A stretch of 48,594 nucleotides of DNA from Acidimicrobiales bacterium (GTDB lineage Bacteria; Actinomycetota; Acidimicrobiia; Acidimicrobiales; CAIXPF01), in the NCBI GenBank assembly GCA_046153015.1, contig JBJXGF010000326.1:1-48594 (forward strand), given 5' to 3'. Shown here in pieces: positions 31,822 to 48,594 of this stretch; positions within the stretch are counted from its first letter, which is position 1; each line of letters starts with the position of its first letter. The position numbers were made by a program, and so were the translations under genes. The notes beneath the pieces are model-generated. The model had not been told where the DNA came from and made no database searches. It saw nothing but the letters and a program-made list of their open reading frames with translations.

Positions 31822-31946
31822 CCCCGCAGTCTCGCACCGATCTAGCCCGAAACGGGGCGGAAGGGGGCGGACTGGCCCGGCGAGAACAGCGCAGCCGAGG
31901 AAGGTGGAAGGGGGTGAGCCGCTCCCGCTCTTCACCACCTCTAGCC

Positions 31947-32386: not shown

Positions 32387-33175
32387 ATGACGTTCTGCGC
32401 GATGGCTCGTTGTCCGCGCACCGGTGCAGTCGGTGCTGCAGTGGCGACGTTCTCGGTAAACGTTGGAAGGGTGTCGCCGCTCTACACCGGTCTCACGCCC
32501 CGTTTCGAAGCGTCGGGTGGCATGATCTTCGTGCATTCGTCGGTCAGCCTCGGTACCGGTCAGGTGGGCCTCGATGCCTTGCGCTCCGGTCGCGATCTCG
32601 ATGAGGTCATCGATGCGATGGCGAGTCATGACTCGCATTGGGCCTGGCGCCAGGTGACGGTGATGCGGCCGAGCGGCGAGGTTCGGGTGGTGACCGGTAC
32701 AGAGTCGGCAGGGCCGTGGGCCGGTGATCGCAGCGGCGATGGGTGGACCGTGTCGGGAAACGCGCTGCGCGGGGCTGGGGTCGTGGATGCGATGGCAAGC
32801 GCTGTTGTCGATGACGGTGCTGCGCTGTCGGAGCGCCTGATGAGAACACTGGAGGCCGGCCGAGCGGCCGGCGGCCAGGCCGATCCGAAGACCGGTGAAC
32901 CGCTGACCGAACTGTCAGCCGTGCTCCTCGTCTTCGACGGGGAACGCGCCGTGCCCCGTGTCGACCTTCGCATCGACTACGACCCGCTGGCCGTGCCTCG
33001 CCTTCGAGCTCTCCACGACTACACAGGCCCGGTGGGCGACTACTACGACGCTATGGAGCTGTGCCCCGACGCAATGATCTCGTACCTGCGGGAGCGCGGT
33101 GTCTACGACGCAATGCCGCACTTCCGCCAGTTTCGCGACCCCAAGACACTGACGCTGCGGGGCTATCCATCCTGA
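32387..33175 (+). CDS. DUF1028-family (Ntn-hydrolase-like) protein
   Basis: MTFCAMARCPRTGAVGAAVATFSVNVG matches the MTFSIvARcp.tG.lGvAvaS N-terminus of DUF1028 proteins. 262 aa. Confidence 0.8.
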   Translation: MTFCAMARCPRTGAVGAAVATFSVNVGRVSPLYTGLTPRFEASGGMIFVHSSVSLGTGQVGLDALRSGRDLDEVIDAMASHDSHWAWRQVTVMRPSGEVRVVTGTESAGPWAGDRSGDGWTVSGNALRGAGVVDAMASAVVDDGAALSERLMRTLEAGRAAGGQADPKTGEPLTELSAVLLVFDGERAVPRVDLRIDYDPLAVPRLRALHDYTGPVGDYYDAMELCPDAMISYLRERGVYDAMPHFRQFRDPKTLTLRGYPS

Positions 33176-33290
33176 CACCTGTTGGCGCCCGTGTCAGGCA
33201 ACTGGGTGGAGCCGTTCCGGTCCGCCTTTCGTGCGCCGCGGCGCGTAGTTCGGTGGCTCGCCGGGTCGTATCCCCTTCAGCCACTTCAAC

Positions 33291-33680
33291 ATGGTTCTCA
33301 CGCTTGGCTGCACGGCACCACTGGGCGCCCCGGCGTGGCGGGCCATCGACGAGTTCTATCCCCTTGGGTCGGGTGGCCACTGGGTCCTCGCGAACGACTT
33401 CAGTGAACCGTCAAACATCGCCGCCGTGCTCGGTGAACGGGGCTACACGCCCGTCGAGACGTGGGACCGTATCGTGGCGCAAGGGGCGCAGCCCGCGCTG
33501 TGGCGACCGTACGCACCCGGAGCCGAATTGGTCACGTCGAGCAACGCGACAGAATGGGCCGGCTTCGTTCGGAACTGCTTTGGGATGCCCTCGGCCATCA
33601 CGGCGTGGCTCCTGGCGTTGAGCGACCGGAACGGATGGATCCATGGGGATCGACGCGCCAGTTCCCGGGATCTGAACGGA
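33291..33680 (+). pseudogene. possible GNAT-acetyltransferase fragment that degenerates after ~125 codons
   Basis: SNIAAVLGERGYTPVETWDRIV..ATEWAGFVRNCFGMPSAITAWLLALSDRNGWIH is protein-like. After it the ORF becomes Q/R/P-rich nonsense, and GNAT-core-like bits appear in other frames. Confidence 0.3.
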
Positions 33681-33943
33681 GACGCACACGCAGTCGCTCC
33701 CGAGGTTGCGCAGACGCGCCACCGCCGCCAACCTCAGCACCACCAAACGCAACAAGGCCGACGAGGCAGCCAGATACCTACTCAACAAAGGCGAGCTACC
33801 TCGACTACTCAACCGCGCTCGCCGCAGGCTCGGAGACGTTCGACTGGTTGGCCAGTGCCATCCGCGGTCTACGAGCGGTGGGCGGAGTGGGCGGCCGCTA
33901 GGGTGACGGCGCTCTAGCCCACCGATTGCGAGGATATCTCGGG

Positions 33944-34762
33944 ATGCCGATCACCGTCGAGGTCACCTACCCGGCTGACGGCGTCGGCCTGATCGCCTTC
34001 GCCGACCCGCCCCGCAACTTCGGCAACAGCGAGCTGGCCGAGCGCCTGTTGGACGCCGTCGCCGAGCTTGGCCGGGCCGGGTGCCGGGTGTTCGTGCTGG
34101 CCTCCGATACGCCCGGCTACTTCATCGCCCACTGGTCGTTACAGTTCATCGTCGACCGGCAGGCCGCGCTGGAGGCCAACGGCCATATGGCTCCGCCGCC
34201 GGCGCCTCGGATCTTCGAGTCGATATCGGCCACACCGATGATCTCCATCGCTGCCAACAACGGGCAGGCCTGGGGTGGCGGCGCGGAGCTGTCCTGGGCG
34301 TGTGATCTACGCATCGCGGCCAGCTCGGCGACCTACGGGCAGCCCGAGGTGGGCCTCGGCATCATCCCCGGCGCCGGGGGAACGACGCGCCTCGCCCGTC
34401 TGATCGGGCCGACGAAGTGCCTCGAGATGATCCTCGACGGTCGGCCGATCACCGCGGCCGAAGCGCTGCAGCTGGGCGCCATCAACAAGTTGGTACCCGA
34501 CGCGGAGCTCCGTCAGGCCGCCATCGATTGGGCGGCTCATATCGCCCGCTGGCCGGCCTGGTCTTTGGAGGCCTGCAAGCGCAGCTTCTACGAAGGGCGG
34601 GACCTTCCGCTCGAGGTCGCCGGTCGCAACGAATCGCAGATCTTCGCCAGCATGGCCCGCCGGGCCGACTCGATCGCGCTGATGCGTGAGGTCCAGGCCC
34701 GCTACGACGCCGGCCTCGATTCCTACGACGCCATCGGCCTGCCCCGCTCCGGCTCCGCCTGA
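33944..34762 (+). CDS. enoyl-CoA hydratase/isomerase family protein
   Basis: GVGLIAFADPPRNF.., GQAWGGGAELSWACDLRIA, GLGIIPGAGGTTRL. ATG 33944 follows GAGGA. Confidence 0.9.
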   Translation: MPITVEVTYPADGVGLIAFADPPRNFGNSELAERLLDAVAELGRAGCRVFVLASDTPGYFIAHWSLQFIVDRQAALEANGHMAPPPAPRIFESISATPMISIAANNGQAWGGGAELSWACDLRIAASSATYGQPEVGLGIIPGAGGTTRLARLIGPTKCLEMILDGRPITAAEALQLGAINKLVPDAELRQAAIDWAAHIARWPAWSLEACKRSFYEGRDLPLEVAGRNESQIFASMARRADSIALMREVQARYDAGLDSYDAIGLPRSGSA

Positions 34763-34825
34763 ACCGCATCCGCCCGCCCGGCCTGTGACGATCCCGCCAG
34801 GGCGGGTCACGGCTACGCTCGCCGC

Positions 34826-35137
34826 ATGTACAAGTGCCTGGTGAACGGGAGTATCGACGAGGGCGCTCGGCGTGTCGTCGTCGACGGTTTGCGTGCGCTC
34901 ATGGCCACCCGCTTCGGCATCGACGACGTCACGGTCGAGTTCATCGAGATTCCCGAGGGCCGCTGGTTCACCGCCGGGAAGCCGTCGCGTGCGTCGATGG
35001 TGTTGGGTACGGTGCCGGTGGGCACCCCCCAGGACGAACGGGTAGCGGTGATGGACGCCATCGCCCGGCTGTTCGCCGAGGCCGCCGACACCGACTATCA
35101 CGACGTGATGGTCTCCGCGCCCGACCGGAAGGGATGA
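34826..35137 (+). CDS. tautomerase-superfamily-like protein lacking Pro-1
   Basis: 103 aa. It resembles the next gene in layout (YKCLV..IDEGARRVVVDGLRALM..VEFIEI) but starts MYK rather than MP. Confidence 0.5.
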   Translation: MYKCLVNGSIDEGARRVVVDGLRALMATRFGIDDVTVEFIEIPEGRWFTAGKPSRASMVLGTVPVGTPQDERVAVMDAIARLFAEAADTDYHDVMVSAPDRKG

Positions 35138-35140
35138 CGA

Positions 35141-35491
35141 ATGCCGCTGTATCGCTGCACGACACCGACAGGAACGCTGGACGACGCCAAGCGCAAGGCG
35201 ATCGCCGAGGCCATCACGAGTGTCCATTGCGAGGTCACCGGCGCGCCGCCAACGTTCGTACATGTGCAGTTCTTCGACGGCCCCGAGGCGACGATCCACG
35301 GCGGGATCCGAGCGGGTCGCGACGCGCAGCTCACCGAACGCCTCATCGAGCGCTGTGTAGGCGAGGTGGGCGCCATCGCCGGCGTGGCGTTCTCGATGCG
35401 GACGTCGACCACCAACGCCTCGTGGATCTTCGAAGGCGGGCGGGTCTTTCCCGAACCGGGCCACGAAGCCGTCTGGCTCCAGCAGCGCTGA
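35141..35491 (+). CDS. tautomerase family protein (putative oxalocrotonate-tautomerase-like)
   Basis: MPLYRCTTPTGTLDDAKRKAIAEAITSVHCEVTGAPPTFVHVQFF has the Pro-1 start and the conserved TGAP block. Confidence 0.7.
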   Translation: MPLYRCTTPTGTLDDAKRKAIAEAITSVHCEVTGAPPTFVHVQFFDGPEATIHGGIRAGRDAQLTERLIERCVGEVGAIAGVAFSMRTSTTNASWIFEGGRVFPEPGHEAVWLQQR

Positions 35492-35577
35492 TCGAATCGG
35501 GGCGAGGCCGCAGCGGCGGCGCCCGGCCGATTCGGCGCCGATTCGTCGGTAGGGTTTGGTCTCTGTGCGACGCATCT

Positions 35578-35814
35578 TGCGGACCAACGACGACGGCAGT
35601 CGGCTGCGCGGTCGCCGACCAGCAGGTCCCCAACGGCTATTACCACCTCGACCACATGATCACCTCCGCTGCGCACCGTGGCACTGAGATCGGCCTCTGT
35701 GGCACCTGCTTGGACGCACGAGGGATCACCGACGCGTTGAACGTCCCCGACGCCCACCGCTCCAGCCTCGAGGTCACGGACTGGACCCTCTGGGCCGACA
35801 AGACCATCACCTTT
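35578..35814 (+). pseudogene. DsrE/DsrF-like protein, C-terminal two-thirds without a start codon
   Basis: AVGCAVADQQVPNGYYHLDHMITSAAHRGTEIGLCGTCLDARGITDA..WTLWADKTITF fits the DsrE-like pattern (GYYn.e.m...G.ev..CGtCmdARGi...Adkv.tF). There is no in-frame ATG/GTG/TTG upstream, and no stop after TITF. Confidence 0.5.
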
Positions 35815-35819
35815 GACCC

Positions 35820-36040
35820 GCTGATCCGTCTACTCGCGCGACGCGGACTGCGTTTCGAGTTGGAGGAGGCGGAGGGAGGTGGGGTTGACGAAACGTTCCC
35901 AATCGTCCAGACGCACCTGGTGCGCGAAGCGGTGGCATCGACCCGGATCGAAGGAACGCTCGCCTCGATCGTCGAGGTCTTCGATACCGATGGGTCCGAT
36001 GCCGGGCTCACCGGCCACATGGAGGTGGACTTCGCGTTCG
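35820..36040 (+). pseudogene. Fic-family N-terminal (Fic_N-like) fragment fused in frame to the DsrE remnant
   Basis: PIVQTHLVREAVASTRIEGTLASIVEVFDTD matches the ..l.r.EAvaSS.IEGT.as..e.. motif. No HxFx(D/E)GNGR core follows. Confidence 0.4.
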
Positions 36041-36561
36041 GCAGGAGTTGCGAGAGACCGTCAAGCCGGCCGAGCGGAGATTCTGCCTCGCCCAGCAGCG
36101 TCGCGGTGTCCGCGCTCAACACCAAGGGGCGCGGTCGCCGCCCCGGCTGGAAGGCCCAATGTTCGCGGCGTCCCGGCGTCGGCGCACCTCCCCCAACCGG
36201 TGGCGTTCATACCGGTCTCGATCCACCCGTTCTACCCAGCGTCTCTAACGAAATTGGACGACCACGTCAGATCAGAGACGAACGTCGACCGCGCGCCGTC
36301 GACCCGACGCTGTCGGGTCGACGGTGAAGCAGTCGTTGGCGCAGATCTCCTGTGCGGTCGAAGGCCGGCCAAGTCCACGACGAGTGGGTTGGGTCCAGTG
36401 GGATACGCCGCCTCGAAGCTGTCGCTGAGTGGCATCAGCGGCCGCCCTTGGCGTCGACGACCCGCTAGGCGAAGCGCTCATCCGGCAAGGGGCGGGCGCA
36501 GCCGGCAACGGGGGCGCTGGCTGGTCTACGCTCGGGTCGCGCACCCGAGGGGAGGGCCGTT

Positions 36562-37821
36562 GTGAGCGAGGTCGGTGACGCTACCGCGAGCCTCTACGAG
36601 CGGCTGATCGGGGAGGATCGGGTGTCGGGGCGGTTGTACGTCGAGCCGGCCGTCTTCGAGCGCGAGTTGGAGCGAATCCACCATGGGGGTTGGGTGTTCG
36701 TCGGCCACGAGAGTGAGGTGGCTGCACCCGGCGAATTCGTCACTCGGCTGCTCGGTCGCCAGCCGGTGGTGCTGACCCGCGACGAGGCCGGCGCGGTGCG
36801 GCTGTGTTCGAACCGCTGCCCGCACCGCGGTGCCACGGTTTGCGGCCTTGATCGAGGCCAGAGCCGGTACTTCCGCTGCCCGTACCACGCCTGGACCTTC
36901 GACAACGCCGGAGCGTTGGTGGCCCTGCCCGGCGAGGAGGGCTTCGGGCCGACGTTCGATCGCGCCGCGCACGGGCTGGCGCCGGTGCCCCGCATGGACA
37001 GCTTTCGGGGATTCGTGTTCGGGAGCTGGTCGCACGACGTGCCGACGCTGGCCGAGCACCTCGGCCGGTCTGGCGAGATGATCGACCGTTTGTGCGACCT
37101 GTCGCCGGTGGGGGAGATCTCGCTGCGGGCCGGGTGGCTGCGCCATCGCATTCGGGCCAACTGGAAGATGGCCGCCGAGAACGTGTGCGACTTCTACCAT
37201 CCGCCGATCACCCACGCTTCCTCCGGCCTGGCCGCCGGCCTGCCTCCGGGCTATTTCAGCGACGCTTTCGGTGGCGTGACGCGGGATCTGGGCGGCGGCC
37301 ACGGCGAGGTGGACTACCGGCCGGCTCTGGCCGGCGCGACGCCCAAACCGCTGGAGAGCTACCAAGGCCCGCGGCGTCAACACCTCGACCTACTGGCGGC
37401 GCGCGACGGCGCGGCGGCCGCAGTGGCACGGCTGCGGGTCGGCCCGCCGCACGGGTTCATCTTTCCCAACCTGTTCATCGCCGAGGAGAGCATCTTCGTC
37501 ATCCAGCCGGTCAACGTGGCGGAGATGACCCACCTGCAGACGCCGGTCATGTGGGTGGGCCTGCCTGAGGAGATGCACCGTCGCCAGCTGCGGCGCTTCG
37601 AGGGCGGCTTCGGACCGGGCGGTATGGTCGAACCCGACGATGCGGCGACGTGGGAGCGGATCCAGCTCGGCTTGCAGGCAGGCGAACCCGAATGGGTGAT
37701 GCTGGAACGTGGCGTGGAACGAGACGCCTCGGGGGTGGGGCGAGCGCTGGACGAGATCGCCATGCGCGGCTTCTGGCGCCACTACCGCTCACTGATGACC
37801 AACGGGGCGGCGGCGAGATGA
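36562..37821 (+). CDS. aromatic-ring-hydroxylating dioxygenase, Rieske alpha subunit
   Basis: GTG start. Rieske motif CSNRCPHRGATVC..FRCPYHAWTF. 419 aa. ATGA overlap with the beta-subunit gene. Confidence 0.9.
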   Translation: MSEVGDATASLYERLIGEDRVSGRLYVEPAVFERELERIHHGGWVFVGHESEVAAPGEFVTRLLGRQPVVLTRDEAGAVRLCSNRCPHRGATVCGLDRGQSRYFRCPYHAWTFDNAGALVALPGEEGFGPTFDRAAHGLAPVPRMDSFRGFVFGSWSHDVPTLAEHLGRSGEMIDRLCDLSPVGEISLRAGWLRHRIRANWKMAAENVCDFYHPPITHASSGLAAGLPPGYFSDAFGGVTRDLGGGHGEVDYRPALAGATPKPLESYQGPRRQHLDLLAARDGAAAAVARLRVGPPHGFIFPNLFIAEESIFVIQPVNVAEMTHLQTPVMWVGLPEEMHRRQLRRFEGGFGPGGMVEPDDAATWERIQLGLQAGEPEWVMLERGVERDASGVGRALDEIAMRGFWRHYRSLMTNGAAAR

Positions 37822-38327
37822 GCGCCATCGAGGATTTGCTCGAGCAGCAGCGCGTCGAGCAGTTGCTGTTTCTCGAAGCCCGGCTCATCGACGAGCGCCG
37901 CTTCGCTGAATGGGAGGCCCTGTGGGTCGACGAGGGGATCTACTGGGTGCCGGCCAACGGTGAGGACACCGATCCCGACACCGATGTGTCACTCATCTAC
38001 GACAACCGATCCCGCATGCACAACCGGGTCGAGCGCTATGCGGGTGGTAAAGCGCTTTCCCAGCAGCCGCCACCGCGCACCGTCCACCTCGTCGGCAACG
38101 TGACCACCATCGAGCCTGCCACCGCCGGTGCCGTTGGTAGTGACGTGCGCCGGTGGGTCCACTCGACGGTGCAGGTGGCCGAGTCCCGCCCCGGCGTGCG
38201 CATCGACTGGGTCGGCCGGGTCACCCACCACCTCGTCGAACGCGACGGCGAGCTGCGCATCGCCTTCAAGAAGGTCATGCTCGTCAACAACGACCAGGAA
38301 CTGACCACCATCGACTTCCTGCTCTGA
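37818..38327 (+). CDS. aromatic-ring-hydroxylating dioxygenase beta subunit (NTF2-like)
   Basis: 169 aa from ATG 37818. VEQLLFLEARLIDERRFAEWEALWVDEGIYWVP..LIYDNRSRMHNRVERY is typical of beta subunits. Confidence 0.85.
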   Translation: MSAIEDLLEQQRVEQLLFLEARLIDERRFAEWEALWVDEGIYWVPANGEDTDPDTDVSLIYDNRSRMHNRVERYAGGKALSQQPPPRTVHLVGNVTTIEPATAGAVGSDVRRWVHSTVQVAESRPGVRIDWVGRVTHHLVERDGELRIAFKKVMLVNNDQELTTIDFLL

Positions 38328-38572
38328 ACCGCCTGGCCCGGCTGCGATCCTCGAGCTGGCTGACCACCGGCGGCGGCGCCCAGGGACATCGATGAGCGCA
38401 CGGCCGGTGCGGCCGTTGCCCTCGACGGCCGGCCACAGCGGACGGCGCGCATGGCGGCTGCAGTACCAGCCGGTATTCGCAGCGTCGAGTTCGGCTGGAG
38501 TCACGGGCGGGTGCGGCCCAGCCGGTGGATGACCGTGAGCGTGCCGGAAACGCGTCGGCGTCCAACACGCCA

Positions 38573-38699
38573 CGGGATACCACAGCCCCCCAGTCCGACA
38601 GATCGACCCCGAGAGCCGGAGTGGCCACAGATCGTGGGATTCGTTGTCGTCGACCGGCAACGAACGGCAGGGAGCGGTAACGAGTGGACACGAGCAACC
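38573..38699. repeat. flank module X (copy A), directly abutting the left end of repeat copy 3
   Basis: GGGATACCACAGCCCC..GTCCGACA..TCGACCC..CCGGA....GACCGGCAACGAACGGCAGG is colinear with 47953-48078. The exact 16-mer GGCAACGAACGGCAGG is at 38656-38671 and at 48056-48071. Confidence 0.65.
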
Positions 38700-38872
38700 G
38701 GTGTCGGAGGGGGGGACTTGAACCCGCCCCAGGCCAGTAGCGGCAAGCGGCAGGGACCGGCAGCTACCGGCGTTGAACTGCACATTTCCGGTGGCCGTGG
38801 TCGCTGGTTGCCGCTTGTTGCCGCTCGATTCCGTTGCCTGCCATTAGCAAATCCATTAGCAACCGACACACC
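38700..38872. repeat. full-length copy 3 of the ~170-nt repeat family
   Basis: GGTGTCGGAGGGGGGGACTTGAACCCGCCCC...GGCAGCTACCGGCGTTGAACTGCAC...TTGCCGCTTGTTGCCGCT...CCATTAGCAAATCCATTAGCAACCGACACACC. Confidence 0.8.
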
Positions 38873-39230
38873 TCACACCTCACGCCGCCCGGCGGCCGGC
38901 GGCCTTGCCGAAGGTACCGGATCTGCAGGGTGCCGCCGTTCCGCGCCTCGCCTTGGCCCGGTGTCGCCGCGGACCCCTGGACCAGGGGCTGTTCCGAGCC
39001 GGCGGGTTCAGGGTGGGCCGCCAGCGATGATGTGAGGCTGACGTACAATGCTCCGGCTGCTGGAGAGCGTGAGACCCACCTCGTTGAGCCCCATGGGGAG
39101 CACACGCGACGCGGTACAAATGCGGCTCGTTCGAGAACCTGTTCTGAGTCGGGGTTATGTGTTGGCCATGGCCGTCTCGGACATAATAGGTTCCTCTGGG
39201 AACGTGTTGCGCTCCGACGGGACGGGATTG

Positions 39231-39944
39231 ATGGCCGACTACAGCGTAAAGGAGGCGGCTGCGGCGCTGGGGGTCTCGGTGCAGCATGTTCGGCGCCTCA
39301 TCCGTTCCGGTCTGCTGCCGGCAAGGCTGATCGGTGACGTATGGGTGCTGCCCGCAGATGCGGTACGGGAACGGTCTTCAATCGCTCCGCCGGCCGGGCG
39401 GCCCTTGTCGGCGGAGACCGCATGGCGGCTCCTGCAGCTTGTTGACGTCACGCTCGTCCGATCCGCGGTCCTTACAGGTGAAGTGCCCACGGCGCTGGAC
39501 GAGTTGGCTGGCTCCCGTCACCAGAGGAGGCGTCTCCTCGACCATCTCGCCCACGCCCCCGATGTGGGTCAGTGGCACCTGTGGCTACGGCGACGCGCCG
39601 ACAGGAAGCTCTGGTGGGTTCATCCCGCTGCGATCGCCAAGCTGGACGCAGACGAGCGCGTGCAGCACATACACCCCCCGGCCGTCGTTTGGCCCGACGG
39701 GGACTCGCGCTACGTTTCCGCTGCCGATGAAGAACATCTCGCCGCCACGTTCGCGGCGAAGCCCGCCAGCGATGGAAATGTGGCGCTACTCGTCTTCGAT
39801 CCCGACGTTGCACCAGGACGCATCCCCGCTGCTGCCGCCGTGGTAGACCTGCTGAACTCCCCCGAGGCGCGGCAACGATACGCCGCCGGCGAGGCGCTCG
39901 GCGGTGCGCATCGCAGGCTGCTCGCCGAGTTCAAGCGACCGTGA
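39231..39944 (+). CDS. excisionase/MerR-type HTH protein with an uncharacterised C-terminal domain
   Basis: MADYSVKEAAAALGVSVQHVRRLIRSGLLPARLIGDVWVLPADAV is an HTH_17-type motif. About 237 aa from ATG 39231 (ORF 39048..39944). It lies 27 nt upstream of the NTase gene. Confidence 0.65.
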   Translation: MADYSVKEAAAALGVSVQHVRRLIRSGLLPARLIGDVWVLPADAVRERSSIAPPAGRPLSAETAWRLLQLVDVTLVRSAVLTGEVPTALDELAGSRHQRRRLLDHLAHAPDVGQWHLWLRRRADRKLWWVHPAAIAKLDADERVQHIHPPAVVWPDGDSRYVSAADEEHLAATFAAKPASDGNVALLVFDPDVAPGRIPAAAAVVDLLNSPEARQRYAAGEALGGAHRRLLAEFKRP

Positions 39945-39971
39945 GATCGATCGGCAGCAGCGGGCGAGAAG

Positions 39972-40723
39972 ATGATAGAGCTGTCTGATCTGACCCCGGC
40001 GGCGGGTGAGGGATGGGCCTTGCTTTTCGAGTTGGCGGAGGAGGACGACCAGTCGTGGGTCCTGATCGGCAGCCAAATGATGCACCTTCTCGCGGTCGAG
40101 CTCAACGCGGCGTTCATCCGTCCCACCGACGATGTGGATGTGGTAGTGAACGTGCGCACCCGCCGATCGGGCACGGAATGGTTGAGCGGCTGGCTGCTGG
40201 CACGTGGCTTCGAGTCCGCCGGTATCAACGCGGACAACATCGGACATCGCTTCACCCGGGCGGTGTCCTCTGCTCCAGGAACGGTGGTCTTCGACGTGCT
40301 AGCGCCAGAGGGGCTGGGCAACCGGGCGAGGATCTATACGCTTCGCCCGGCCCGCACCGTGCAGGTGCCGGGCAGTGTGCAGGCCTTGCAGCGCAGCGAG
40401 TTGGTCGCGGTGAGCGCCACGGACATAGCGGGTGGCCGGACTGAGGGCCGCGTCCGCCGCCCCTCGCCACTGGGCGCACTATCGGAAAGGCAGCCGCGAC
40501 CCGCATTGTCGGCCGCGACAACGGCGAGCGCGATTGGCAAGACGCAGCACTGCTGCTTTCTGCCATCGACCCATTCGCCGTCGATGACCTGACGAAGAAG
40601 GACCGCCAGCGGTTGTCGTTCCTCAAACCGTTGGGCGACGAGGCACACCCAGCCTGGCGTCCCTTCGACAACGCTGCGCAGCGCACCGGTAGCGCAGCCC
40701 TCCAACTGCTGCTGCGCAGCTGA
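39972..40723 (+). pseudogene. nucleotidyltransferase-fold protein (AbiEii/MNT-like), apparent frameshift at ~40445-40480
   Basis: The minimal NTase signature is LIGSQMMHLLAVELNAAFIRPTDDVDVVV (GS..DxD). After ..VRRPSPLGAL the listed frame turns to nonsense. The frame ending at TGA 40721-40723 reads IGKAAATRIVGRDNGERDWQDAALLLSAIDPFAVDDLTKKDRQRLSFL.., and is open only from 40445. Confidence 0.55.
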
Positions 40724-41087
40724 CCTGAGCCGACCTGCGGTAGCGCCGATCGAGCGCCAACCAGACCGTCATCGACGGCGGCCGCATGCCAGTCTGGAGG
40801 TTCGCCCCGCTTTACCGGTCTCGTCGAGCAATCCGGGGTCCCATCAAGCTGGCGAGCGACATCCGCCAGCGCTCGCTCCAAAATGCGGAACGGGATTCGG
40901 CTCTGGGCTCCACAAAGACTGGACCACCGGCTTGGCCGATTCGTAAACTTCGACTGCGTCCAAACCATGTTCAGCACCAATCACGAGCGGGCGTGGGTGA
41001 GATCTAACCACACCCAGTAGTCGCCCCTGGGCAACGGCCTGGCGCCCCGCCCCAGCCACCAACGATTGCAAGCCGCTGCCGCTGTCC

Positions 41088-41204
41088 TCAGTCAGCACTC
41101 CGAAAAGCACAACGTGGACCTACCGGCGAACGAACAAGCCAAACTGCCTGCCGTTTGAACTCAAGATCGAACCGCGATCGTCGCCCATAAGAAGTTCCTC
41201 TCAT
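41088..41204 (-). mobile_element. IS3-family OrfA (HTH_Tnp_1) N-terminal remnant
   Basis: MRGTSYGRRSRFDLEFKRQAVWLVRS resembles the ..RR.FS.EFK..AV.LV.. start of IS3 OrfA. There is no intact continuation. Confidence 0.4.
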
Positions 41205-41272
41205 CCCATCCTGAAGGAACTCCAGGATGGGATGAGGTTCAGACTGATCCGCGCCGCCGCTTCCTGGCACCT

Positions 41273-44200
41273 TCAGCGCAGACGCAGCTGGCCTCGACCG
41301 TCCCGAAGGACCTGGCCGCCGTTGATGAGGTCGTGCACATGCCGCTCAAATGCCGCGTCGATATCCGCGCCTACGCGGCGCCAACCAAACAACCTGGCCC
41401 ACTCCATGCGCAGCTCTTCGGGTATGGCGCCACCAGCGTCGTGCAGTTTGTAGAGCAGTGCTAGTCGCAGTTCCTCTGGCGGGACGTGCCCCACGGCTCT
41501 GACCGAATGCTCCTCGTTTGGGATACGCACGGCCGTCTGCGAGCCTGGGACACGGAAGAACTGGCCGTCGGTCTCAACTTCTTGACGGCTGACGGCCTGT
41601 TGGGCCGCCGCGTCGAATGCAGCCTGGATCCTGGACCCCGCACGCTTAATGTTCCAGGCGGACCGTACCGCATCCAGTACTGCGGAGTGGTGGAGCGGAC
41701 CGAACTCGCGCACAACTTCAACAAGCATTGCTCGAACGACCCCCCGAGCGGCTGGATCCACGAAATCGAGTGCTGGCGGCGTGGTGCGCACGGTCGGCGG
41801 AACGAAGAATTCGGCCCACTCCGGACGGGCATCGAAGTCGTTTCGTTCTGTTACGACCATTACCGGGGGGCGCCGTTCCTCCGCCTCCGGCTGTCCCCGC
41901 CGGCTTGGTGCGGTGCTCAATGCAGCCTTGACCGCGTCACGGATGCGTTGCAGTTCCCGTTCCCGATCGCTGAGCCACGCTGTGCTCCAGATTCGATGGA
42001 TGTGCCACCCCAGACCCTCGAGAACCTCCTGGCGCAGACGATCACGGTCGCGGGCGACTTTGGAGGAATGGTAGGTGTAGCCGTCGCATTCGACGCCGAG
42101 CACGAAGGAACCCGGCAACGTCGGGTGCTTGATCCCGATGTCTATTCGGTAGCCGGCCACGCCCACCTGCGGGACGGCCTCAAGCCCGAGCCGACGGATC
42201 GCCGCGCCGACATCCTCCTCGAACGGGCTGTCCGGGCCAAGCGAACTGCCGGTCACGTCGAGCGCGAGTGCAGCAGGTCCTCGTTCAGCGAAGTCGAGAT
42301 ATCGGGCCAGGTGGCGCAGCGACGGGGTCTCCGACGTGATCTGCCCGGCCACGACCGAACTGACAACCTCAAGGCGGTGACGCGCTCTGGTTACTGCCAC
42401 GTTGAGGCGGCGCTCTCCCCCTTGGCGGTTCATGGGTCCGAAATTCATCGTCAACTTGCCGTGCTCATCCGGCCCGTACCCGACCGACAAAATGATGATA
42501 TCCCGCTCGTCCCCTTGGACGTTCTCTAGGTTCTTGACAAAGAACCCTGACAGCCGGTCGGCGTCCTCAAGTTCACGTAGTTCCGGCTCGCGCTCGCTCC
42601 GACGTTCGATCTCGGTTTCGATACAGATTTGCTGGGCGCTGGACAGTGCGACGACACCAATACTCAAGCCGGGGTGGTTGCGGCGATGGAAAAGGACCCG
42701 GTCAACTACCTCCGCCGCCTCTATAGGGTTGTCGCGACTGGTCCCCCGCCGGTAGTGGCCGTTGACCTTGAACAGCTCGACCCCGAGATCCGGGGCTGTA
42801 TGGATCGCTCCGGGGAACGTGTGGAGCCGTCCTTCATAAAAGGAGTGGTTGGAGAACGCGATGAGGTTCTCGTGACGGCTGCGGTAATGCCAGCTCAGAG
42901 GAAGGGTAGGCAACCCCTGGGCCCGGCAACGGTCGAGGACAGACTCGAAATCAAGGAGCTCCTCCCCCTCGGCTTCCCAATCGTCCTCCCCGACGGTCCG
43001 AGCGAAGAAGTCGGTAGGAGGCAGCTGCTTGGGGTCTCCTGCGACGATGAGCTGGTTACCGCGATAGATGGCGCATATTGCGTCCGCTTCTCGGACCTGG
43101 GATGCCTCGTCGAATATGACAACATCAAACCGAAGCGACGGTGGAAGGAACTGGGAGACCGATAGCGGGCTCATCATGAAGCACGGCATCAACCGCTGCG
43201 CGGCCTCCCCCGCTTCGCTCAGAAGCCGACGTACGGGCTTGTGGCGCACTTTGAGCTGCGCTTGCTGGCGGATGACACCCGCCCCGCCGGCCAGCGAGCG
43301 AGGGCGGAGCTGGGCGCAGGCGTTGATCACCTTCGATGCCGCATCAGCGATGAGCTCCCGGTCAAGTGCCTGGAAATCCGCTACGAGCGCATCTCGGTCT
43401 GTTGAGCGGGTCGGCTGGAGTCGGCTGTCGACGGACATCGTGTCGTCCAGCCATCGGGTCAGGGCGGCGCGCTCGATGGTGTCAGCGATGTCCGTGGCCG
43501 CAGCCCGGCTGTGCTCGAGAGTCGAAACAACGGGCTCCCACCCGCTCTCGCACAACCACGACCTGGCTTGTGCGTAGCTGTGCCATTCCTCGATGTCGTT
43601 GACCGTCGAGCTGAGCGCAGCGAGGAGTTCCACGCCGCCCTCGAACGTTTCCATATCGGCGGCGAGCGTGGCGGCATAGGCCGGGTCGAACTCGCCCATC
43701 AGTGCGGCTACCGCCTTGTCGAACATTGCCTTGGCACCGCGCAACGCGGCCGCGTCGAGCGAGGCGCCGAGAATTGCTGCTGCCGTGCGGGGCGGGACCG
43801 CGCCCCGAAGGCACTCCCGCATCTCAGCCACCCACGCCGCGGCGCTTCTAAGAAGATCGGGGTGTGGATCGACCGCGAGAGGCCCCAAGATCGGCTGCAA
43901 GTGGGCGAGGTCTTCACGCACTAGAGGGTCCAACCGATCGAGTTCCCGCCGGGCGTGTGCTATCTGTCGCGCATCCGCTATCAGGAGTGGTTTGGCCGCT
44001 GCGGTGTCCAGAACTCGGACAACTTGGGCGACATGGTGCGCCGTCGTGGCCAGTGACCCGCACCAGCTCGCAACCTCGCTCAGTGGGCGCCGAAACACCA
44101 CCGCGGCGTGTGCGCCCAGCGTCGAGCTCAGCCGGCCCGTGGCCAGCGCCGTCGCCGCGGCGCGCGCTGCCGCCACCGCCGCGGGGAACCGGGGATCAGG

Positions 44201-46768
44201 GTCCGACCCGACTGCGAGTTGCCGGGCGAGCGCGGGTGAATCCACAAGGCCAGCGGCCAGTTCAAGCGCCTTGTCTGCGAGGCTCAGCGCCCGCTCGAGC
44301 GTGGCGAAGTCGGCGGCATCGCGCGAAGGGTAGTAACGGGCGCCGACCTGGGGGCCGTGGACGCGCTCAGCCTGGGTGATGCGCTGGCGTTCGTCCTGCC
44401 ACTCGATCGCTTCAGCCAGCCGATCGAGCATGTCGCTCGTCACCTTCCCGGTAACGGAGACGCCAGCCAGACTCTTCTTGTCGTGTCGATATTCGGCCTT
44501 CAGCTTTCCGGGTCCGCGATGCACGGTATCGAAACGAGCCTTGAGCGCGCGAAGATCGAGATCGAGCACGGCGGGGCTGAACGTTGTTTGCATCGACACC
44601 GAACGGGCCCGATATCTCTCCAGGAGCTCACGAAGGACCTGGCGCGCCTCATCGAGCGCCGGGCGCGCAGTGGGGTTTAGCCACCAAGGCTCCGGGGGAG
44701 TTGGCGAACCAGCAAGGCTCGCCAACTCCACGAGGCGCAAGGTCGACTCCGCTGACACCTCGACGCCCGCCACACCGAACGCTTCAGCCAGGATGGACGA
44801 TGCGCCCTGGAGTTGTGCGACCCACTGGCCGGCCTCGTCGAGTTGTTGGGCGAGGTCGTCCAGGGCCGAGGCGTGCCATTGGTCAAGCGGGCCGAGCATC
44901 GAATCGGCCTGCTGCACGGCGGCCTCAGCGCCATCCATGGCGTCCGCGATCAGCGGGTGAACGTCGCGCCAGCCCGGCGCCTTGGTTTCGAGCAACTCTA
45001 CGGTGCGCTGATGGTCCACGATGTTTTGTGTCAAGTTTCGTAAAGGCGCAACAAAAGGCGCAAGATCCGGCGCCGTGAGCCAGTCTTGGCCGATCTGCGG
45101 CCGACGTTCGATCAACTCCAACACTGCAAGATATGACGAGACCTGGGATGAGCTCGAGCAGCGGGCGATCACGAGCTCTTGAGCGAGGTTGTCCAATTCG
45201 GCTCGGAGCGTGTCAAGAGCGGCACTGCAGCTGTTCACCCGCCGCCGCAACTCGGCCTGCCGTGACATGCCGCCCGCGGGGTCGCGCAGGTCGCGCCACA
45301 GGAAGTCTTCCCTCCGCGCGATGGGGCCCCAGGCGCGACCGAGGCGCTCTGCGGCGTCCCGGAGCGTGGCAAAGCCCACTGGGCTCAGGTCCTCAGCGGC
45401 GACGCGGGAGATCGGCACATCGGGCAGGTTCCGTAGCTGCGAGATCCGCCCCGCAACATCGTGTATGGATCGCTGAAGAGGCTGGCGAACCTCATTGACG
45501 GCGACCGCGTAGTTGGTGAGCATCTGGCGCTCGCTCGTAAGGCGCGCCCGGCGGCCCGGATCGAAGGTCGACGTTGCGGAGAGTTGCTCCTCGAGTGCCT
45601 TCCCCAGCGCCGTGGCGACAGCCTTGCGGCTGGCGTTGTGCGAGTGCAGCTCCAGGACAAACGGGTCGAGGTGGGCCGCTGCGAGCCGGTTCCGAACGAC
45701 ATCCAGCGCCGCCGCCTTTTCAGAAACGAAAAGCACCGTCTTCCCGTCGGCCATGAGCTGGGCCAAGAAATTGGCGATCGTCTGGGACTTGCCGGTACCT
45801 GGCGGCCCGTCCATCACGAAGCTTCGGCCCTCGCGCGCCGCGAGCAGACACTGCCGTTGAGTTACATCCGCGTCCAGCACCGCGGCCAGCTCCTCGGGCG
45901 GGTGACGCTCGTCCAGCTCCTCCTCGCCGAGCGGCGCGAAATCGAGGTCTTGAGCCATAGCGCTCGTCGGGCCCTCCGCCAGCAGCCGGACCAGCGGGTG
46001 CGCCCCTATCAACTCGGCGTTCTCCTTCAAATCCTGGTAGATCGCCATCTTGTGAAACGTAAAGGTCCGCAGCACTGCAGAATCCCCAACTGTCCACCCG
46101 CTGGCTGCGACCTCGCGCCGGACGAGGGCAAGTACCTCGTTCACGGTCGCGTCGCCGGCCTCGTCCAAGTCGGGAAGCATCAGTCCGAAGTCGCGTTCCA
46201 ACTTGATCTTCAACGCAGGGTTGAGGTATGCCTCAGCCTCATCGGTTTTGGTGAGCCGCCACCGACCAGACTCCATTTCAAGTTCTACCGGCACCAGTAG
46301 CAATGGGCTACGCGCCGGCTTGTCGTCGACATCAATCCAGTTCAGGTGGCCAAGGCCGAGAAACAGAACCCACAGACCGGTGTCCAGGAACTCCTGCCGG
46401 GCCGTTTTGCTCAGCAACTTGAGGCTTCGCTCGATTTGCACCCCGGTGCGGTCGTCGAAAGCCACAACCAACTCGTCCCGGCCGGGCCGATGAACCGGGG
46501 CCGCGCCGGTTCGGGGACTCGGTGGTTCCGGGGGAAGGAAGAACCGCCATCCACGGGACCGGCCGGTGAGGCCTTCCTCAACCTCGACTGCTGGCTGCTT
46601 GAACTCCAGGGATGAGGATCTGGTGTGGGAGAAGTACAACAACTTGTTGCGGCGGCTGAGATCAACCAGGTCTGCAGCCCATCGATCAAGGTGATCTGCC
46701 ACGACACCACTGGCGTGGCTCCCAGGCGTCCCTACAGTCATACGAGCCTTCTCCACCACGTCGCACAT
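41273..46768 (-). CDS. 1831-aa SF1 (Upf1/AAA_11-AAA_12-like) helicase fused to a Vsr/DUF559-like endonuclease and a DUF3320-like tail, with a DUF4011-like N-terminus
   Basis: Walker A MDGPPGTGKS (45785-45808, aa 321-328). Motif II VVIFDEASQV (DEASQ at 43097-43111, aa ~1220). IVAGDPKQLPPT, SWHYRSRHENLI, GGERRLNVAVTRAR. Nuclease block GYRIDIGI..VLGVECDGYTYHSS..RDRDRLRQEVLEGLGWHIHRIW (aa ~1560, nt ~42060-42120). N-terminal DLSRRNKLLYF. Confidence 0.9.
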   Translation of the reverse strand: MCDVVEKARMTVGTPGSHASGVVADHLDRWAADLVDLSRRNKLLYFSHTRSSSLEFKQPAVEVEEGLTGRSRGWRFFLPPEPPSPRTGAAPVHRPGRDELVVAFDDRTGVQIERSLKLLSKTARQEFLDTGLWVLFLGLGHLNWIDVDDKPARSPLLLVPVELEMESGRWRLTKTDEAEAYLNPALKIKLERDFGLMLPDLDEAGDATVNEVLALVRREVAASGWTVGDSAVLRTFTFHKMAIYQDLKENAELIGAHPLVRLLAEGPTSAMAQDLDFAPLGEEELDERHPPEELAAVLDADVTQRQCLLAAREGRSFVMDGPPGTGKSQTIANFLAQLMADGKTVLFVSEKAAALDVVRNRLAAAHLDPFVLELHSHNASRKAVATALGKALEEQLSATSTFDPGRRARLTSERQMLTNYAVAVNEVRQPLQRSIHDVAGRISQLRNLPDVPISRVAAEDLSPVGFATLRDAAERLGRAWGPIARREDFLWRDLRDPAGGMSRQAELRRRVNSCSAALDTLRAELDNLAQELVIARCSSSSQVSSYLAVLELIERRPQIGQDWLTAPDLAPFVAPLRNLTQNIVDHQRTVELLETKAPGWRDVHPLIADAMDGAEAAVQQADSMLGPLDQWHASALDDLAQQLDEAGQWVAQLQGASSILAEAFGVAGVEVSAESTLRLVELASLAGSPTPPEPWWLNPTARPALDEARQVLRELLERYRARSVSMQTTFSPAVLDLDLRALKARFDTVHRGPGKLKAEYRHDKKSLAGVSVTGKVTSDMLDRLAEAIEWQDERQRITQAERVHGPQVGARYYPSRDAADFATLERALSLADKALELAAGLVDSPALARQLAVGSDPDPRFPAAVAAARAAATALATGRLSSTLGAHAAVVFRRPLSEVASWCGSLATTAHHVAQVVRVLDTAAAKPLLIADARQIAHARRELDRLDPLVREDLAHLQPILGPLAVDPHPDLLRSAAAWVAEMRECLRGAVPPRTAAAILGASLDAAALRGAKAMFDKAVAALMGEFDPAYAATLAADMETFEGGVELLAALSSTVNDIEEWHSYAQARSWLCESGWEPVVSTLEHSRAAATDIADTIERAALTRWLDDTMSVDSRLQPTRSTDRDALVADFQALDRELIADAASKVINACAQLRPRSLAGGAGVIRQQAQLKVRHKPVRRLLSEAGEAAQRLMPCFMMSPLSVSQFLPPSLRFDVVIFDEASQVREADAICAIYRGNQLIVAGDPKQLPPTDFFARTVGEDDWEAEGEELLDFESVLDRCRAQGLPTLPLSWHYRSRHENLIAFSNHSFYEGRLHTFPGAIHTAPDLGVELFKVNGHYRRGTSRDNPIEAAEVVDRVLFHRRNHPGLSIGVVALSSAQQICIETEIERRSEREPELRELEDADRLSGFFVKNLENVQGDERDIIILSVGYGPDEHGKLTMNFGPMNRQGGERRLNVAVTRARHRLEVVSSVVAGQITSETPSLRHLARYLDFAERGPAALALDVTGSSLGPDSPFEEDVGAAIRRLGLEAVPQVGVAGYRIDIGIKHPTLPGSFVLGVECDGYTYHSSKVARDRDRLRQEVLEGLGWHIHRIWSTAWLSDRERELQRIRDAVKAALSTAPSRRGQPEAEERRPPVMVVTERNDFDARPEWAEFFVPPTVRTTPPALDFVDPAARGVVRAMLVEVVREFGPLHHSAVLDAVRSAWNIKRAGSRIQAAFDAAAQQAVSRQEVETDGQFFRVPGSQTAVRIPNEEHSVRAVGHVPPEELRLALLYKLHDAGGAIPEELRMEWARLFGWRRVGADIDAAFERHVHDLINGGQVLRDGRGQLRLR

Positions 46769-47164
46769 CTCGGAGCAGGCGACCGGCGAGTCGGACCGTT
46801 GCCTGGGTTGCAGCTAAACCGGTGGCGAGGCTACCGGCTGGGCGGTGAGGATGGACCCAGCCGCCCACTTCGACGCTCCCAGGCGGTCACACCCCGCCCC
46901 GATGTGCAGTACCTGAGCCAGCGAAGTGAGACAGATCGGCGCTAGTTCTGCAATCTGGTGGAATCTAAGATAAGCGACGGTTACCATCAGGCGAACTTTT
47001 TCCGACATTGCCGCGCGGACGGGCTTCAAAGACCTGCGCTGTCGGCACCGGCCGGTGGTGCTAGCGCTGTCGGACAGGTCGACTGCGGTCGTGGAACCGC
47101 GGACGATATGACCGACGATTCGATCCCCGAGCCGTCGCACCATCACCTCCGTTGGAGGAACACC

Positions 47165-47500
47165 ATGCGCCGTCAACTTCTCGCCGCTGCAACCGCTGTT
47201 GCGTCGACCGTGGTGCCCACTACCACCGCAAATGACGTCTGCGGGCAGCGGCACCAACCGCCAGGAGACCGAGGTTTCGTCCTTATGCGAAATTGTCACC
47301 GCCTATCCAACCGGGCGCCGCCGGTTCTTTGACCCTGAGGCGTCAGGGGTACCAACCTCACCGCGACAGCCGTCACGGCCAACCCCGGGTGGCGCTTCAG
47401 CATCGAGCGGGCCACCGGCCTCAACCCCGAGGTGGAGTTCCGCAACGGCACCTCACGTGTCACCTTCCAGGCCCAGTCGAAGACGGCAGGGTCATCGCCG
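47165..47500 (+). pseudogene. secreted-protein gene remnant (signal peptide intact, body frameshifted)
   Basis: GGAGGAA, then ATG 47165 encoding MRRQLLAAATAVASTVVPTTTA (signal-like). Protein-like continuations sit in two other frames (EVSSLCEIVTAYPTGRRRFFDPEA, then GTNLTATAVTANPGWRFSIERATGLNPEVEFRNGTSRVTFQAQ). Confidence 0.4.
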
Positions 47501-47881
47501 AGGTTCGCACCCGACTCGGCTGATCCCAACCAGCTCCCTCCGGGCTGCCGCCGATGTACCGGGGCCCGGAGGGGGTTGAAGCGCTGGCCCGGCCCCTGGC
47601 AAGTCGCCAGGGTCATCACCGCCGGTGGGCTCCCCGCCGTCAGCCCGACACCGCAATGACGCACCAACAGCTGATCACCCGACCTTCGCAGCCTGCTTCA
47701 GCACGCCCCTCCACCCGGACACATCCCGGACGAGATGTCGTCGAACCTCGCTCTCGTCCTTGTCCACCATGTCGCCGACACCCTGATCGAACGTGGCAGG
47801 CCGCCCTCCGGGTCGCCACAAGCGGAGACCCAAACCCCTGCAAGCTGCGCCGGTTAGGGGCTGCGGCGGCGGGGAGCGGAA

Positions 47882-47912
47882 CATTGGCAGATCCATTAGC
47901 AACCGACACACC
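47882..47912. repeat. 31-nt right-end fragment of the repeat family (direct repeat of 38842-38872)
   Basis: CATTGGCAGATCCATTAGCAACCGACACACC versus CATTAGCAAATCCATTAGCAACCGACACACC, 29 of 31 identical. Confidence 0.75.
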
Positions 47913-47952
47913 GGACCGAACCCACTGGGCTGGCCAGGTCGAACGTCGAACC

Positions 47953-48078
47953 AGCCGATGGAGGGGATTCCGCAGCCCCACGTCCGACACTTCGACCCTC
48001 CGGACCCGCACGACCACGGTCAGCGAGATTTCGGGGCCACTGACCGGCAGCCAGCGGCAACGAACGGCAGGTAGCTAC
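47953..48078. repeat. flank module X (copy B)
   Basis: GGGGATTCCGCAGCCCCACGTCCGACACTTCGACCCTCCGGA...GACCGGCAGCCAGCGGCAACGAACGGCAGG is colinear with 38573-38699. Confidence 0.65.
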
Positions 48079-48097
48079 GGTGTCGGAGGGCCGACAC
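48079..48097. repeat. collapsed repeat: left-end stub joined directly to the right-end terminus (perfect 7-bp hairpin)
   Basis: GGTGTCGG AGGG CCGACAC. The first 12 nt of the element are followed at once by its last 7 nt. Confidence 0.6.
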
Positions 48098-48402
48098 AAA
48101 CCCCAAGTACACGGGATCCCTGGGTCCACCAATACGCAGCCGCCTGACCTGCGAGCCCCGGGTTATGAGCCCTATTTTCGATCATTCGTTTCACCTGGTC
48201 AGGGCACATCGTCCCAGATCAGAGGCCATTATGGCCACCCGTTGTTGCCCGCTGGAGACCCCAAGTTGCCACTGTGCTGTGAGATTATTGTGAGATTTTC
48301 TGTAGCCCTTGGTGCGGCCGCTCGCCGCCGAGCCGGGACTCACGCCCGACCACTGAGGGTGGTGGCCTGCCCGGTCGTCGCTGGCGGTTGTGGTGGCGCC
48401 GG

Positions 48403-48594
48403 CTACCGCCAGGTCCATTCCGCGGCGTCCCACGTTTGGGGCCGGGCGGGTGGTGCGAGGATCGGTGCCCAGAGTTGTTGCAACGCCGCGTAGGCCGCGT
48501 CGAGGTTGGTCCAGGGGATCGAGTGGTCGCGTACGTAGCCAGCCCAAGTTCGTTCCCATTGGGTGGGCGGTGGCGGAAGGATTGTGGGCAGGCT
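48403..48594 (-). CDS. 3' end of a gene that starts beyond the right window edge; product unknown
   Basis: An open frame runs from nt 48594 down to TAG (48403-48405): ..TQWERTWAGYVRDHSIPWTNLDAAYAALQQLWAPILAPPARPQTWDAAEWTWR*. It is not in the ORF track because it has no start codon in the window. Confidence 0.35.
   Translation of the reverse strand, partial: SLPTILPPPPTQWERTWAGYVRDHSIPWTNLDAAYAALQQLWAPILAPPARPQTWDAAEWTWR

Follow-up and report, generated by a model that had tools for sequence, protein, structure and literature searches.

The window analysed here is the whole of a 48,594-nt contig (JBJXGF010000326.1) from an Acidimicrobiales bacterium. In its right-hand part, a stretch of about 9 kb, referred to below as the island, lies between two copies of a 31-nt direct repeat, CATTAGCAAATCCATTAGCAACCGACACACC at 38842-38872 and CATTGGCAGATCCATTAGCAACCGACACACC at 47882-47912. 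Both 31-mers are on the + strand and 29 of their 31 positions are identical, a match that did not occur in any of 100 dinucleotide-preserving shuffles. An earlier note on this DNA had pointed out the pair, which is borne out by our analysis, and had read it as the trace of site-specific integration into the end of a small gene or element. A recombination context is indeed present, but the homology between copies breaks elsewhere, 140-170 nt upstream of the 31-mer, in a core that corresponds, in reverse complement, to the 3' end of tRNA-Leu(GAG) and is the attachment (att) core of a family of large serine recombinase (LSR) elements.

The left 31-mer is followed by 181 nt of unique DNA and then by a two-gene module (Table 1). 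The first gene, with its true start at 39231 (360 nt downstream of the left 31-mer) and its end at 39944, encodes an HTH_17 protein with an excisionase-type helix-turn-helix (HTH). The second gene (39972-40723) is frameshifted near 40480, and intact 250-aa relatives are present within the same 90% cluster. Its label in the earlier note, nucleotidyltransferase (NTase), is unconfirmed, as searches of Pfam, NCBIfam, PADLOC and PDB sequences gave no match, and a single-sequence AlphaFold model was unusable (predicted local distance difference test score, pLDDT, 36); we call the gene NTase-like. When the two genes were compared with AbiE-type pairs, HTH_17 was strong, AbiEi_4 stayed under the cut-off (E = 0.007-0.009), and the only positive sign of an AbiEii nucleotidyltransferase was a GS…DVDVV motif found by eye. 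The module recurs with 90% nucleotide identity in two other contigs (L055, 1893-3569; L056, 1086-2762), beside Crp-like and cyclase genes and with neither repeat nor core. Since the content of these contigs is otherwise unrelated, the pair of HTH_17 and 250-aa genes appears to move as a unit. The earlier note had named relatives with the same genes but no repeat as evidence against an island; for this part of the island, contigs of that kind were found.

Between the module and the next intact gene lie two scraps of mobile DNA. One is a piece of an LSR gene, recovered by tblastn with residues 48-74 of protein P0097 (52% identity, E = 0.001; translation …FVNFDCVQTMFSTNHER) and 91% identical over 34 nt to the LSR gene of contig L049, which is described below. 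No integrase had been noticed in the island before; an intact one is indeed lacking, but this scrap belongs to the family that is tied to the core. The other is an IS3-family insertion sequence (IS) scrap. Its homologue in the closest relative (19712-19849) abuts an LSR pseudogene. This relative is an uncultured Acidimicrobiaceae metagenome-assembled genome (CAVZHK010000008.1; L001, L048 and L057 in our numbering) that is 97-99% identical to the window in shared blocks; average nucleotide identity to CAVZHK01 is about 98%.

The largest gene of the island encodes an intact helicase-nuclease on the - strand, with the domain order DUF4011, superfamily 1 helicase (AAA_11/AAA_12), MTES_1575 (DUF559-like) nuclease and DUF3320 that is typical of the PDC-S37, Hhe and ProA proteins. 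It scores 1225 bits with PDC-S37 and 547 bits with Hhe in PADLOC. Unlike the NCBIfam ProA and Hhe proteins, it remains below the curated cut-offs (1206 bits against 1500 for ProA, 773 against 2000 for Hhe). It is a candidate anti-phage gene; its type is PDC-S37, and Hhe and ProA are related to it. The broken gene with a signal-peptide-like start has a paralogue at 4846-5541 (38-nt similarity to 5387-5424). Apart from the nucleotidyltransferase label, the gene list of the earlier note stands: the HTH gene, the IS3 OrfA scrap, the intact helicase-nuclease and the broken signal-peptide gene are all present.

GC content at third codon positions (GC3) is 0.69-0.81 in the island genes (0.75 in the helicase-nuclease) against 0.83-0.89 in most of the surrounding metabolic genes, whereas bulk GC across 38873-47881 shows no sharp step, so that the expected shift in composition is seen in GC3 only. 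The helicase-nuclease, the HTH protein and the ribbon-helix-helix (RHH) protein of a smaller islet in the window are singletons at 90% identity among ~15 billion proteins; at this threshold, the 97-99% identical relative therefore has no counterpart of the first two. The dioxygenase genes beside the island have cluster members in the relative's contig. With its defence, toxin-antitoxin and mobile scraps, the segment between the 31-mers is accessory, as had been proposed, and probably foreign. It is composite and not one element. Megablast of 36000-48594 against PLSDB gave no match that would indicate a plasmid origin, and no conjugation or replication genes were seen in the window. The earlier note had also suggested a recombinase in the partial open reading frame (ORF) at 48403-48594 or beyond; this ORF has no Pfam match, and the contig ends there.

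Self-comparison of the window shows that all three copies of the 31-mer (the third, at 21386-21416, matches at 29 of 31 positions) are the right-hand end, or a piece of that end, of a longer repeat. The unit consists of module A (~125 nt), a core (GGTGTCGGAGGGGGGACTTGAAC) and module B (~145 nt past the core). The window has five cores, labelled a to e, where chance would give 0.76. All of them are on the + strand, and at all five sites the similarity between copies begins or ends at the core. Other arms are designated X, X', Y and Y'; the repeat copy at site d, where the unit is complete, is copy 3. Over 114 nt, module A(d) shares 67% identity with 47964-48075; 22396-22488 is also related to it. 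Module B(d) shares 81% identity with 21246-21416, 88% with 24263-24378 and 87% with 20566-20679 of the relative (L001). Copy 2 is 98% identical to L001 20566-20723, where an LSR pseudogene directly adjoins on the left. A second, outer pair of direct repeats, which the earlier note had missed, also brackets the island: module A followed by CGGTGTCGGAGGG, at 38574-38711 and 47964-48090 (CGGTGTCGGAGGG itself at 38699-38711 and 48078-48090). The peptide encoded by the first 50 nt of arm Y'(e), …GVGGPTQTPSTRDPWVHQYA, is similar to the C-terminal tail of an LSR in the database (P0104, tail …GVGGASRTLRTRDPWVHRYAVA).

Arm B contains an imperfect inverted repeat (38746-38771 and 38802-38828, with 18-27-nt arms and a 32-nt spacer). 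The hairpin is conserved at 38746-38828, 21287-21372, 24315-24382 and L001 20617-20683, and both copy 2 and the L001 copy end directly after its right arm. Folding of the + strand gave z = -2.4, and covariation support was weak with four sequences. The arm after core e (48239-48300) contains an inverted module-A motif, CCGTTGTTGCCCGCTGG, and a tandem TTGTGAGATTA/TTGTGAGATTT, a layout like that of arm B (a hairpin arm, then an 11-12-nt tandem) in a different sequence.

Within arm B, conservation is highest in the 31-mer (94%, with ~81% over the entire arm, copies 1 and 3 compared), which is ~140-170 nt distant from the break in homology at the core. Words resembling CATTAGCAA are enriched (8 found, 2 expected), and every exact one is within a 31-mer copy; the pattern CATTAGCAA-N3-CATTAGCAA gave 78 unrelated matches in IMG/VR, judged to be chance without inspection. 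The right-hand, solo 31-mer has sharp edges on both sides. Its right edge is the exact point at which copies 1 and 3 lose similarity, and it is nearer to copy 3 (29/31) than to copy 1 (27/31). To its left, 47740-47881 has no significant similarity to module A or B (p > 0.1), and a longer degenerate core-B copy proposed there was rejected as its alignment was not significant. To its right is a unique 51-nt spacer (47913-47963), whose similarity to module A was likewise not significant, so that an extension of module A into the spacer was rejected.

We examined whether the unit corresponds to a gene or an element of another kind. ARAGORN found no tRNA or tmRNA in it, Rfam gave no family at the gathering threshold and, at E <= 1, nothing except one chance match to a microRNA hairpin, and no ORF spans A-core-B. 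A miniature inverted-repeat transposable element or other small transposon was rejected: only a 7-nt inverted match bounds B (GTGTCGG … CCGACAC), and the truncations are all at the core. No target-site duplication was noticed at the copy edges when the aligned sequences were read by eye. Module A was also tried as a decayed LSR 3' end and rejected, since neither translations nor nucleotide alignments were significant; the sole weak hint of an LSR 3' end came from the left flank of core c (p about 0.03).

The identity of the core was established from other loci. Cores 21246, 24265 and 38700 (the last with one extra G) match GTGTCGGAGGGGGGACTTGAAC, which in contig L049 is the 3' end of tRNA-Leu(GAG) together with the stop of an LSR gene; cores b and e are degenerate. 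Core e matches perfectly over 13 nt only, and the L049-type repeat of 28 nt is ~70% preserved there. The core also encodes the last LSR codons, RVGGGT-stop. It occurs six times in IMG/VR contigs, and two of these occurrences are the end of an ORF reading …VGVGGGT-stop; a full-length LSR of 476 aa (Resolvase, Recombinase and Zn_ribbon_recom) ends on it in locus L040, and it is an LSR end in L042 as well. In four other Acidimicrobiia contigs (L049-L052), obtained by a look-up with P0097, the LSR gene ends …PRGVMVRVGGGT-stop on a tRNA-Leu(GAG) gene identified by ARAGORN, which is located directly downstream of secG-tpiA-pgk-gap. A search with the repaired C-terminus of the L001 LSR pseudogene returned many LSR fragments ending …RVGGGT, and more than 30 database LSRs end in VGGGT. 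In L049, 28-nt direct repeats of the core enclose an element remnant. The left one of them has a second LSR gene in front of it, so this locus is a tandem array. In L001, the LSR pseudogene (Zn_ribbon_recom) runs directly into the core, which is followed by arm B'. Another LSR relic locus (L137) has nothing in common with the arms of the window. Because the core is elsewhere the 3' end of tRNA-Leu(GAG) and the LSR stop, the A-core-B unit is an attachment-site junction and not the small target gene or element that the earlier note had assumed. Direct repeats do bound the island, and the distal one does repeat the end of a complete unit, but that unit is not a functional target.

The tail of the LSR appears to vary with what follows the core. 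Beside a real tRNA-Leu, the ORF stops at …RVGGGT-stop, while beside another element arm the stop is lost and ~20 more codons are read (…RVGGGTRTLTPR…AA-stop; L049 7100-7240 and 3700-3790; P0098-P0120). This read-on tail is conserved in many independent database proteins. The dependence on the sequence past the core suggests that the integration state may change the C-terminus of the recombinase. In the four contigs L049-L052, which are independent, an RVT_1 reverse-transcriptase gene (L049 5026-6198) interrupts the LSR gene beside tRNA-Leu; it possibly derives from a group II intron.

Table 1. Repeat sites, features and repeat-bounded segments of the window
Feature	Position	Strand	Description
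Site a, core	21246	+	X-core-B
Copy 1, core a and arm B with 31-mer	21246-21416	+	left flank unrelated
Module A(b) and core b	22396-22510	+	unrelated DNA next, then PDC-S01 ATPase gene
Site b, core	22489	+	A-core-Y
Copy 2, core c and arm B'	24263-24382	+	stops after hairpin, without 31-mer
Site c, core	24265	+	X'-core-B', without 31-mer
Module A(d), arm left of core d	38574-38698	+	non-coding in all frames
Core d	38699-38725	+	GGTGTCGGAGGGGGGGACTTGAACCC; relic of tRNA-Leu(GAG) 3' end, reverse complement
Site d, core	38700	+	A-core-B, sole complete unit
Module B(d), core and right arm	38700-38872	+	imperfect hairpin, 31-mer at end
Left 31-mer	38842-38872	+	tandem CATTAGCAA with 12-nt spacing, then CCGACACACC; distal end of arm B
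HTH_17 and NTase-like two-gene module	39054-40725	+	sharply bounded, 1.67 kb
LSR pseudogene scrap, ~80 nt	40901-40981	+	region just before zinc ribbon; missed by the earlier note
IS3-family scrap	41108-41242	-	IS end and OrfA N-terminus; 87% identical to L001 19712-19849
Helicase-nuclease, 1831 aa, intact	41273-46768	-	Pfam DUF4011, AAA_11, AAA_12, MTES_1575, DUF3320
Broken gene, signal-peptide-like start MRRQLLAAATAVAS…	47112-47659 (about)	+	six-frame translation; no Pfam match
Right, solo 31-mer	47882-47912	+	29/31 to 38842-38872; flanks unlike module A or B
Module A(e)	47964-48077	+	self-comparison
Core e	48078-48105	+	CGGTGTCGGAGGG identical to core d, degenerate beyond
Site e, core	48079	+	A-core-Y'
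Arm Y'(e), other right-arm type	48092-48330	+	inverted A motif 48239-48255, tandem TTGTGAGATT
Segment a-b			starts with B, ends with A
Segment b-c			starts with Y, ends with X'
Segment c-d			starts with B', ends with A
Segment d-e			starts with B, ends with A

If an element had entered the last 31 nt of copy 3, the empty junction 38872/47913, with copy 3 joined to GGACCGAACCCACTGG, might be found in relatives, as the earlier note had predicted. It was not found in the GTDB representatives, the JGI metagenomes or IMG/VR, in which a 23-nt repeat pattern gave 0 matches. A 19-nt arm-B pattern gave 0 matches in IMG/VR and 3 in metagenomes, all of them chance. The closest relative (L001/L048) and a Logan contig (L053) share the left flank with the window, but their match to it stops at 38576, at the left end of module A. 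This is upstream of copy 3, so neither contig is informative about the empty junction. Past 38576, L001 and L053 run into a truncated ISAzo13 transposase gene, and neither the island nor its right flank was found along 38 kb of the relative's contig.

The order of sequences left of the island differs between the window and the relative. The metabolic blocks 24265-29484 and 33269-38576 are in opposite order, and no counterpart of 29485-33268 was seen in 38 kb of the relative. At the edges of the blocks, the relative has scraps of ISAzo13, rve_3 and IS3 and an insertion of 3.2 kb with a Mu-like transposase and AAA_22. The possibility that 24265-38576 is a simple circular permutation of an element in L001 was rejected, as only the two blocks are shared. 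Within the second block, L001 has 68 nt (9786-9854) in place of about 880 nt of the window (35534-36412), and L053 has different DNA there (2025-2414). This stretch, a small hotspot of indels, is located upstream of the Rieske dioxygenase genes.

The reading that we favour, and to which we give somewhat better than even chances, is that the repeats are att junctions of LSR elements at tRNA-Leu(GAG), stacked in a tandem array that has since decayed, and that the solo 31-mer was left by a deletion. Each junction would have been left by an LSR integrative element targeting the 3' end of tRNA-Leu(GAG) and would consist of a left arm (module A or an LSR 3' end), a core of ~25 nt and a right arm (module B or another type). 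The core is the complement of the T-arm and acceptor end of the tRNA and doubles as the last codons of the LSR. Elements would have integrated at such cores again and again, and deletions and IS insertions would then have left a tandem array of remnants from ~21.2 kb to the contig end, with the five same-orientation cores as its seams. The island would then be the stretch from core d (38700) to core e (48079), opening with arm B(d) and closing with module A(e). It would contain the separately acquired HTH_17 and NTase-like module, an LSR scrap of its own cut off beside the IS3 scrap, the intact defence gene of PDC-S37 type and the dead secreted-protein gene. The solo 31-mer (47882) would most likely be the remnant of a further B arm whose left part and core were deleted.

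Reading each segment as an element remnant, with a right-arm type first and a left-arm type last, is self-consistent across the array (Table 1), and the model also agrees with the findings in L049 and L001. One extra event, the deletion, is needed for the solo 31-mer, in a region with at least four other truncations. On this reading, the feature is a decayed, composite stack of LSR elements of a known kind that carry defence genes, and not a new integration system.

Several observations weigh against the tandem array. ARAGORN found no tRNA-Leu gene in the window, which also lacks an intact LSR, and both are likewise missing from the 38 kb of the relative that were covered (L001, L048). Module A is not recognisable as an LSR 3' end, and three junctions are therefore without the expected recombinase gene. 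The perfect match of core e is confined to 13 nt. That the solo 31-mer arose by deletion is an assumption, and nothing to the left of 47882 resembles B. Moreover, the 31-mer is 94% conserved whereas A(e) is merely 67% identical to A(d), a contrast that fits either a recent duplication or selective constraint. Finally, the block rearrangements with IS scraps imply that general recombination could have made part of the mosaic.

The model of the earlier note takes the A-core-B unit as a target into whose last 31 nt a 9.0-kb element integrated, with the 31-mers as attL and attR and the integrase lost or acting in trans. It accounts neatly for the solo 31-mer, whose exact edges and closer match to copy 3 speak for it, and the accessory content with its lower GC3 is in its favour, as is the fact that the predicted empty site (unit, 51 nt, next unit) would be a plausible tandem of units. 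We nevertheless consider it unlikely. No recombinase was seen for the 31-mer, and the one recombinase family for which there is evidence works at the core; a second mechanism would be needed for the other four breaks, which are centred on cores; the island is composite, with the module at 39054-40725 found elsewhere without the repeat and with LSR and IS3 scraps in its middle; and neither an empty site nor a second instance was found in the databases named above. Alternatively, the 31-mer may be no crossover site but an accessory, regulatory or iteron-like binding site, made of two CATTAGCAA half-sites 12 nt apart, that belongs to both arms of the attachment region and is hence found near both element ends. 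The conservation of the 31-mer above that of the whole arm, its tandem 9-mer structure and the enrichment of CATTAGCAA-like words point in this direction, as do the same layout in the arm after core e (hairpin arm, then TTGTGAGATT twice) and the excisionase-type HTH_17 gene near the left 31-mer. On the other hand, serine recombinases are not known to need arm-type sites, the other two copies of module A (22396 and 38574) have no 31-mer upstream, the bona fide L049 element lacks such a second motif, and the HTH_17 gene is part of a separately mobile module. This explanation appears to us as improbable as the preceding one.

A history without any element-level integration would treat the repeats as old dispersed relics and the layout as the product of homologous or illegitimate recombination, IS activity and deletions. 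The opposite order of the two blocks in a relative of 97-99% identity, with scraps of ISAzo13, rve_3, IS3 and a Mu-like transposon at their edges, and the many pseudogenes and frameshifts of the region are consistent with such shuffling. Random truncation, however, predicts neither five independent breaks in the same ~25-nt core nor their single orientation, and elsewhere (L049) it is this core that has been proven to flank LSR elements as a repeat, so we regard this history as rather improbable. We would give even less weight to a cassette-like array, in which the A-core-B units are recombination sites on which a tRNA-Leu-specific LSR acts in trans. Here, small modules without a recombinase would have been captured serially at relic cores far from tRNA genes; examples, all very tentatively, would be the RHH cassette of ~1.2 kb, the PDC-S01 gene, the 9-kb segment with defence genes and possibly a B-51 nt-A cassette that is empty, and the conserved 31-mer and the hairpin of arm B might serve as accessory sites. 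If this were true, the array would be a serine-recombinase analogue of an integron or of accretion as seen in staphylococcal cassette chromosomes (SCC).

Besides the island, the window contains a second, smaller repeat-bounded islet (21246-24382) with a GC3 of 0.71-0.76. It consists of core a with arm B, an RHH (CopG-like) gene at 21421-21699, unassigned ORFs, module A with core b, a PDC-S01 (AAA_14/DUF4143) ATPase gene at 22678-23997, and core c with arm B'. The unit of B end and RHH gene has a 79%-identical paralogue in L001 (13694-14298). Both repeat-bounded stretches hold defence or toxin-antitoxin cargo with lower GC3. A BenE-like fragment (19502-20194) near the intact BenE transporter gene (15335-16573) has the appearance of a partial duplicate; it is located immediately to the left of repeat copy 1. 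A gene at 2846-4321 encodes a type II/Eco57I-like N6 DNA methyltransferase (PADLOC MTase_II, 400 bits), for which no partner nuclease was identified, the neighbouring genes not having been examined.

Serine recombinases that integrate into a tRNA-Leu gene, which is rare for this class, have been described for actinomycete integrative and conjugative elements (AICEs) of Mycobacterium (Ghinet et al. 2011, PMC3218068). Tandem arrays and att sites made of tRNA remnants have been described for tyrosine-recombinase AICEs (PMC3218068). The elements studied here share with the Mycobacterium AICEs an LSR, a tRNA-Leu target and a host in the Actinomycetota, with the LSRs of L049-L052 and L040 ending on the 3' end of tRNA-Leu(GAG). 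They differ in their host, which belongs to the Acidimicrobiia, and in that the window retains relics only, with neither an intact LSR nor a tRNA; the likeness is one of recombinase class and target.

Tandem accretion with cis-mobilisable remnants is also known from the cis-mobilisable elements (CIMEs) of the ICESt1/ICESt3 family and from composite SCCmec islands, which are built by the Ccr serine recombinases at the 3' end of rlmH. As in these systems, several att-core repeats in the same orientation enclose different cargo, some segments lack a recombinase, and junctions have hybrid arms. In contrast to them, the target is a relic of a tRNA 3' end and not fda or rlmH, the array is heavily decayed, and mobility in trans would have to be assumed. 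The island further resembles a classical tRNA-linked island with a tyrosine integrase in its direct repeat, present as a complete unit at one end and as a fragment at the other, and in its accessory cargo and its GC3, which is lower than in the neighbouring genes. Unlike in such an island, the 31-mer is outside any tRNA, tmRNA or recognisable gene, the tRNA-derived part is 140-170 nt away, and there is no tyrosine integrase.

To read the segment as a target followed by an island and a duplicated end of that target would misplace the recombination site by ~150 nt and miss the recombinase family. Nothing in the arrangement would surprise a specialist. It extends the tRNA-Leu-targeting serine-recombinase elements, so far reported in Mycobacterium, to uncultured soil Acidimicrobiia, and, on the tandem-array reading, decayed arrays of such elements act as small defence and toxin-antitoxin islands.

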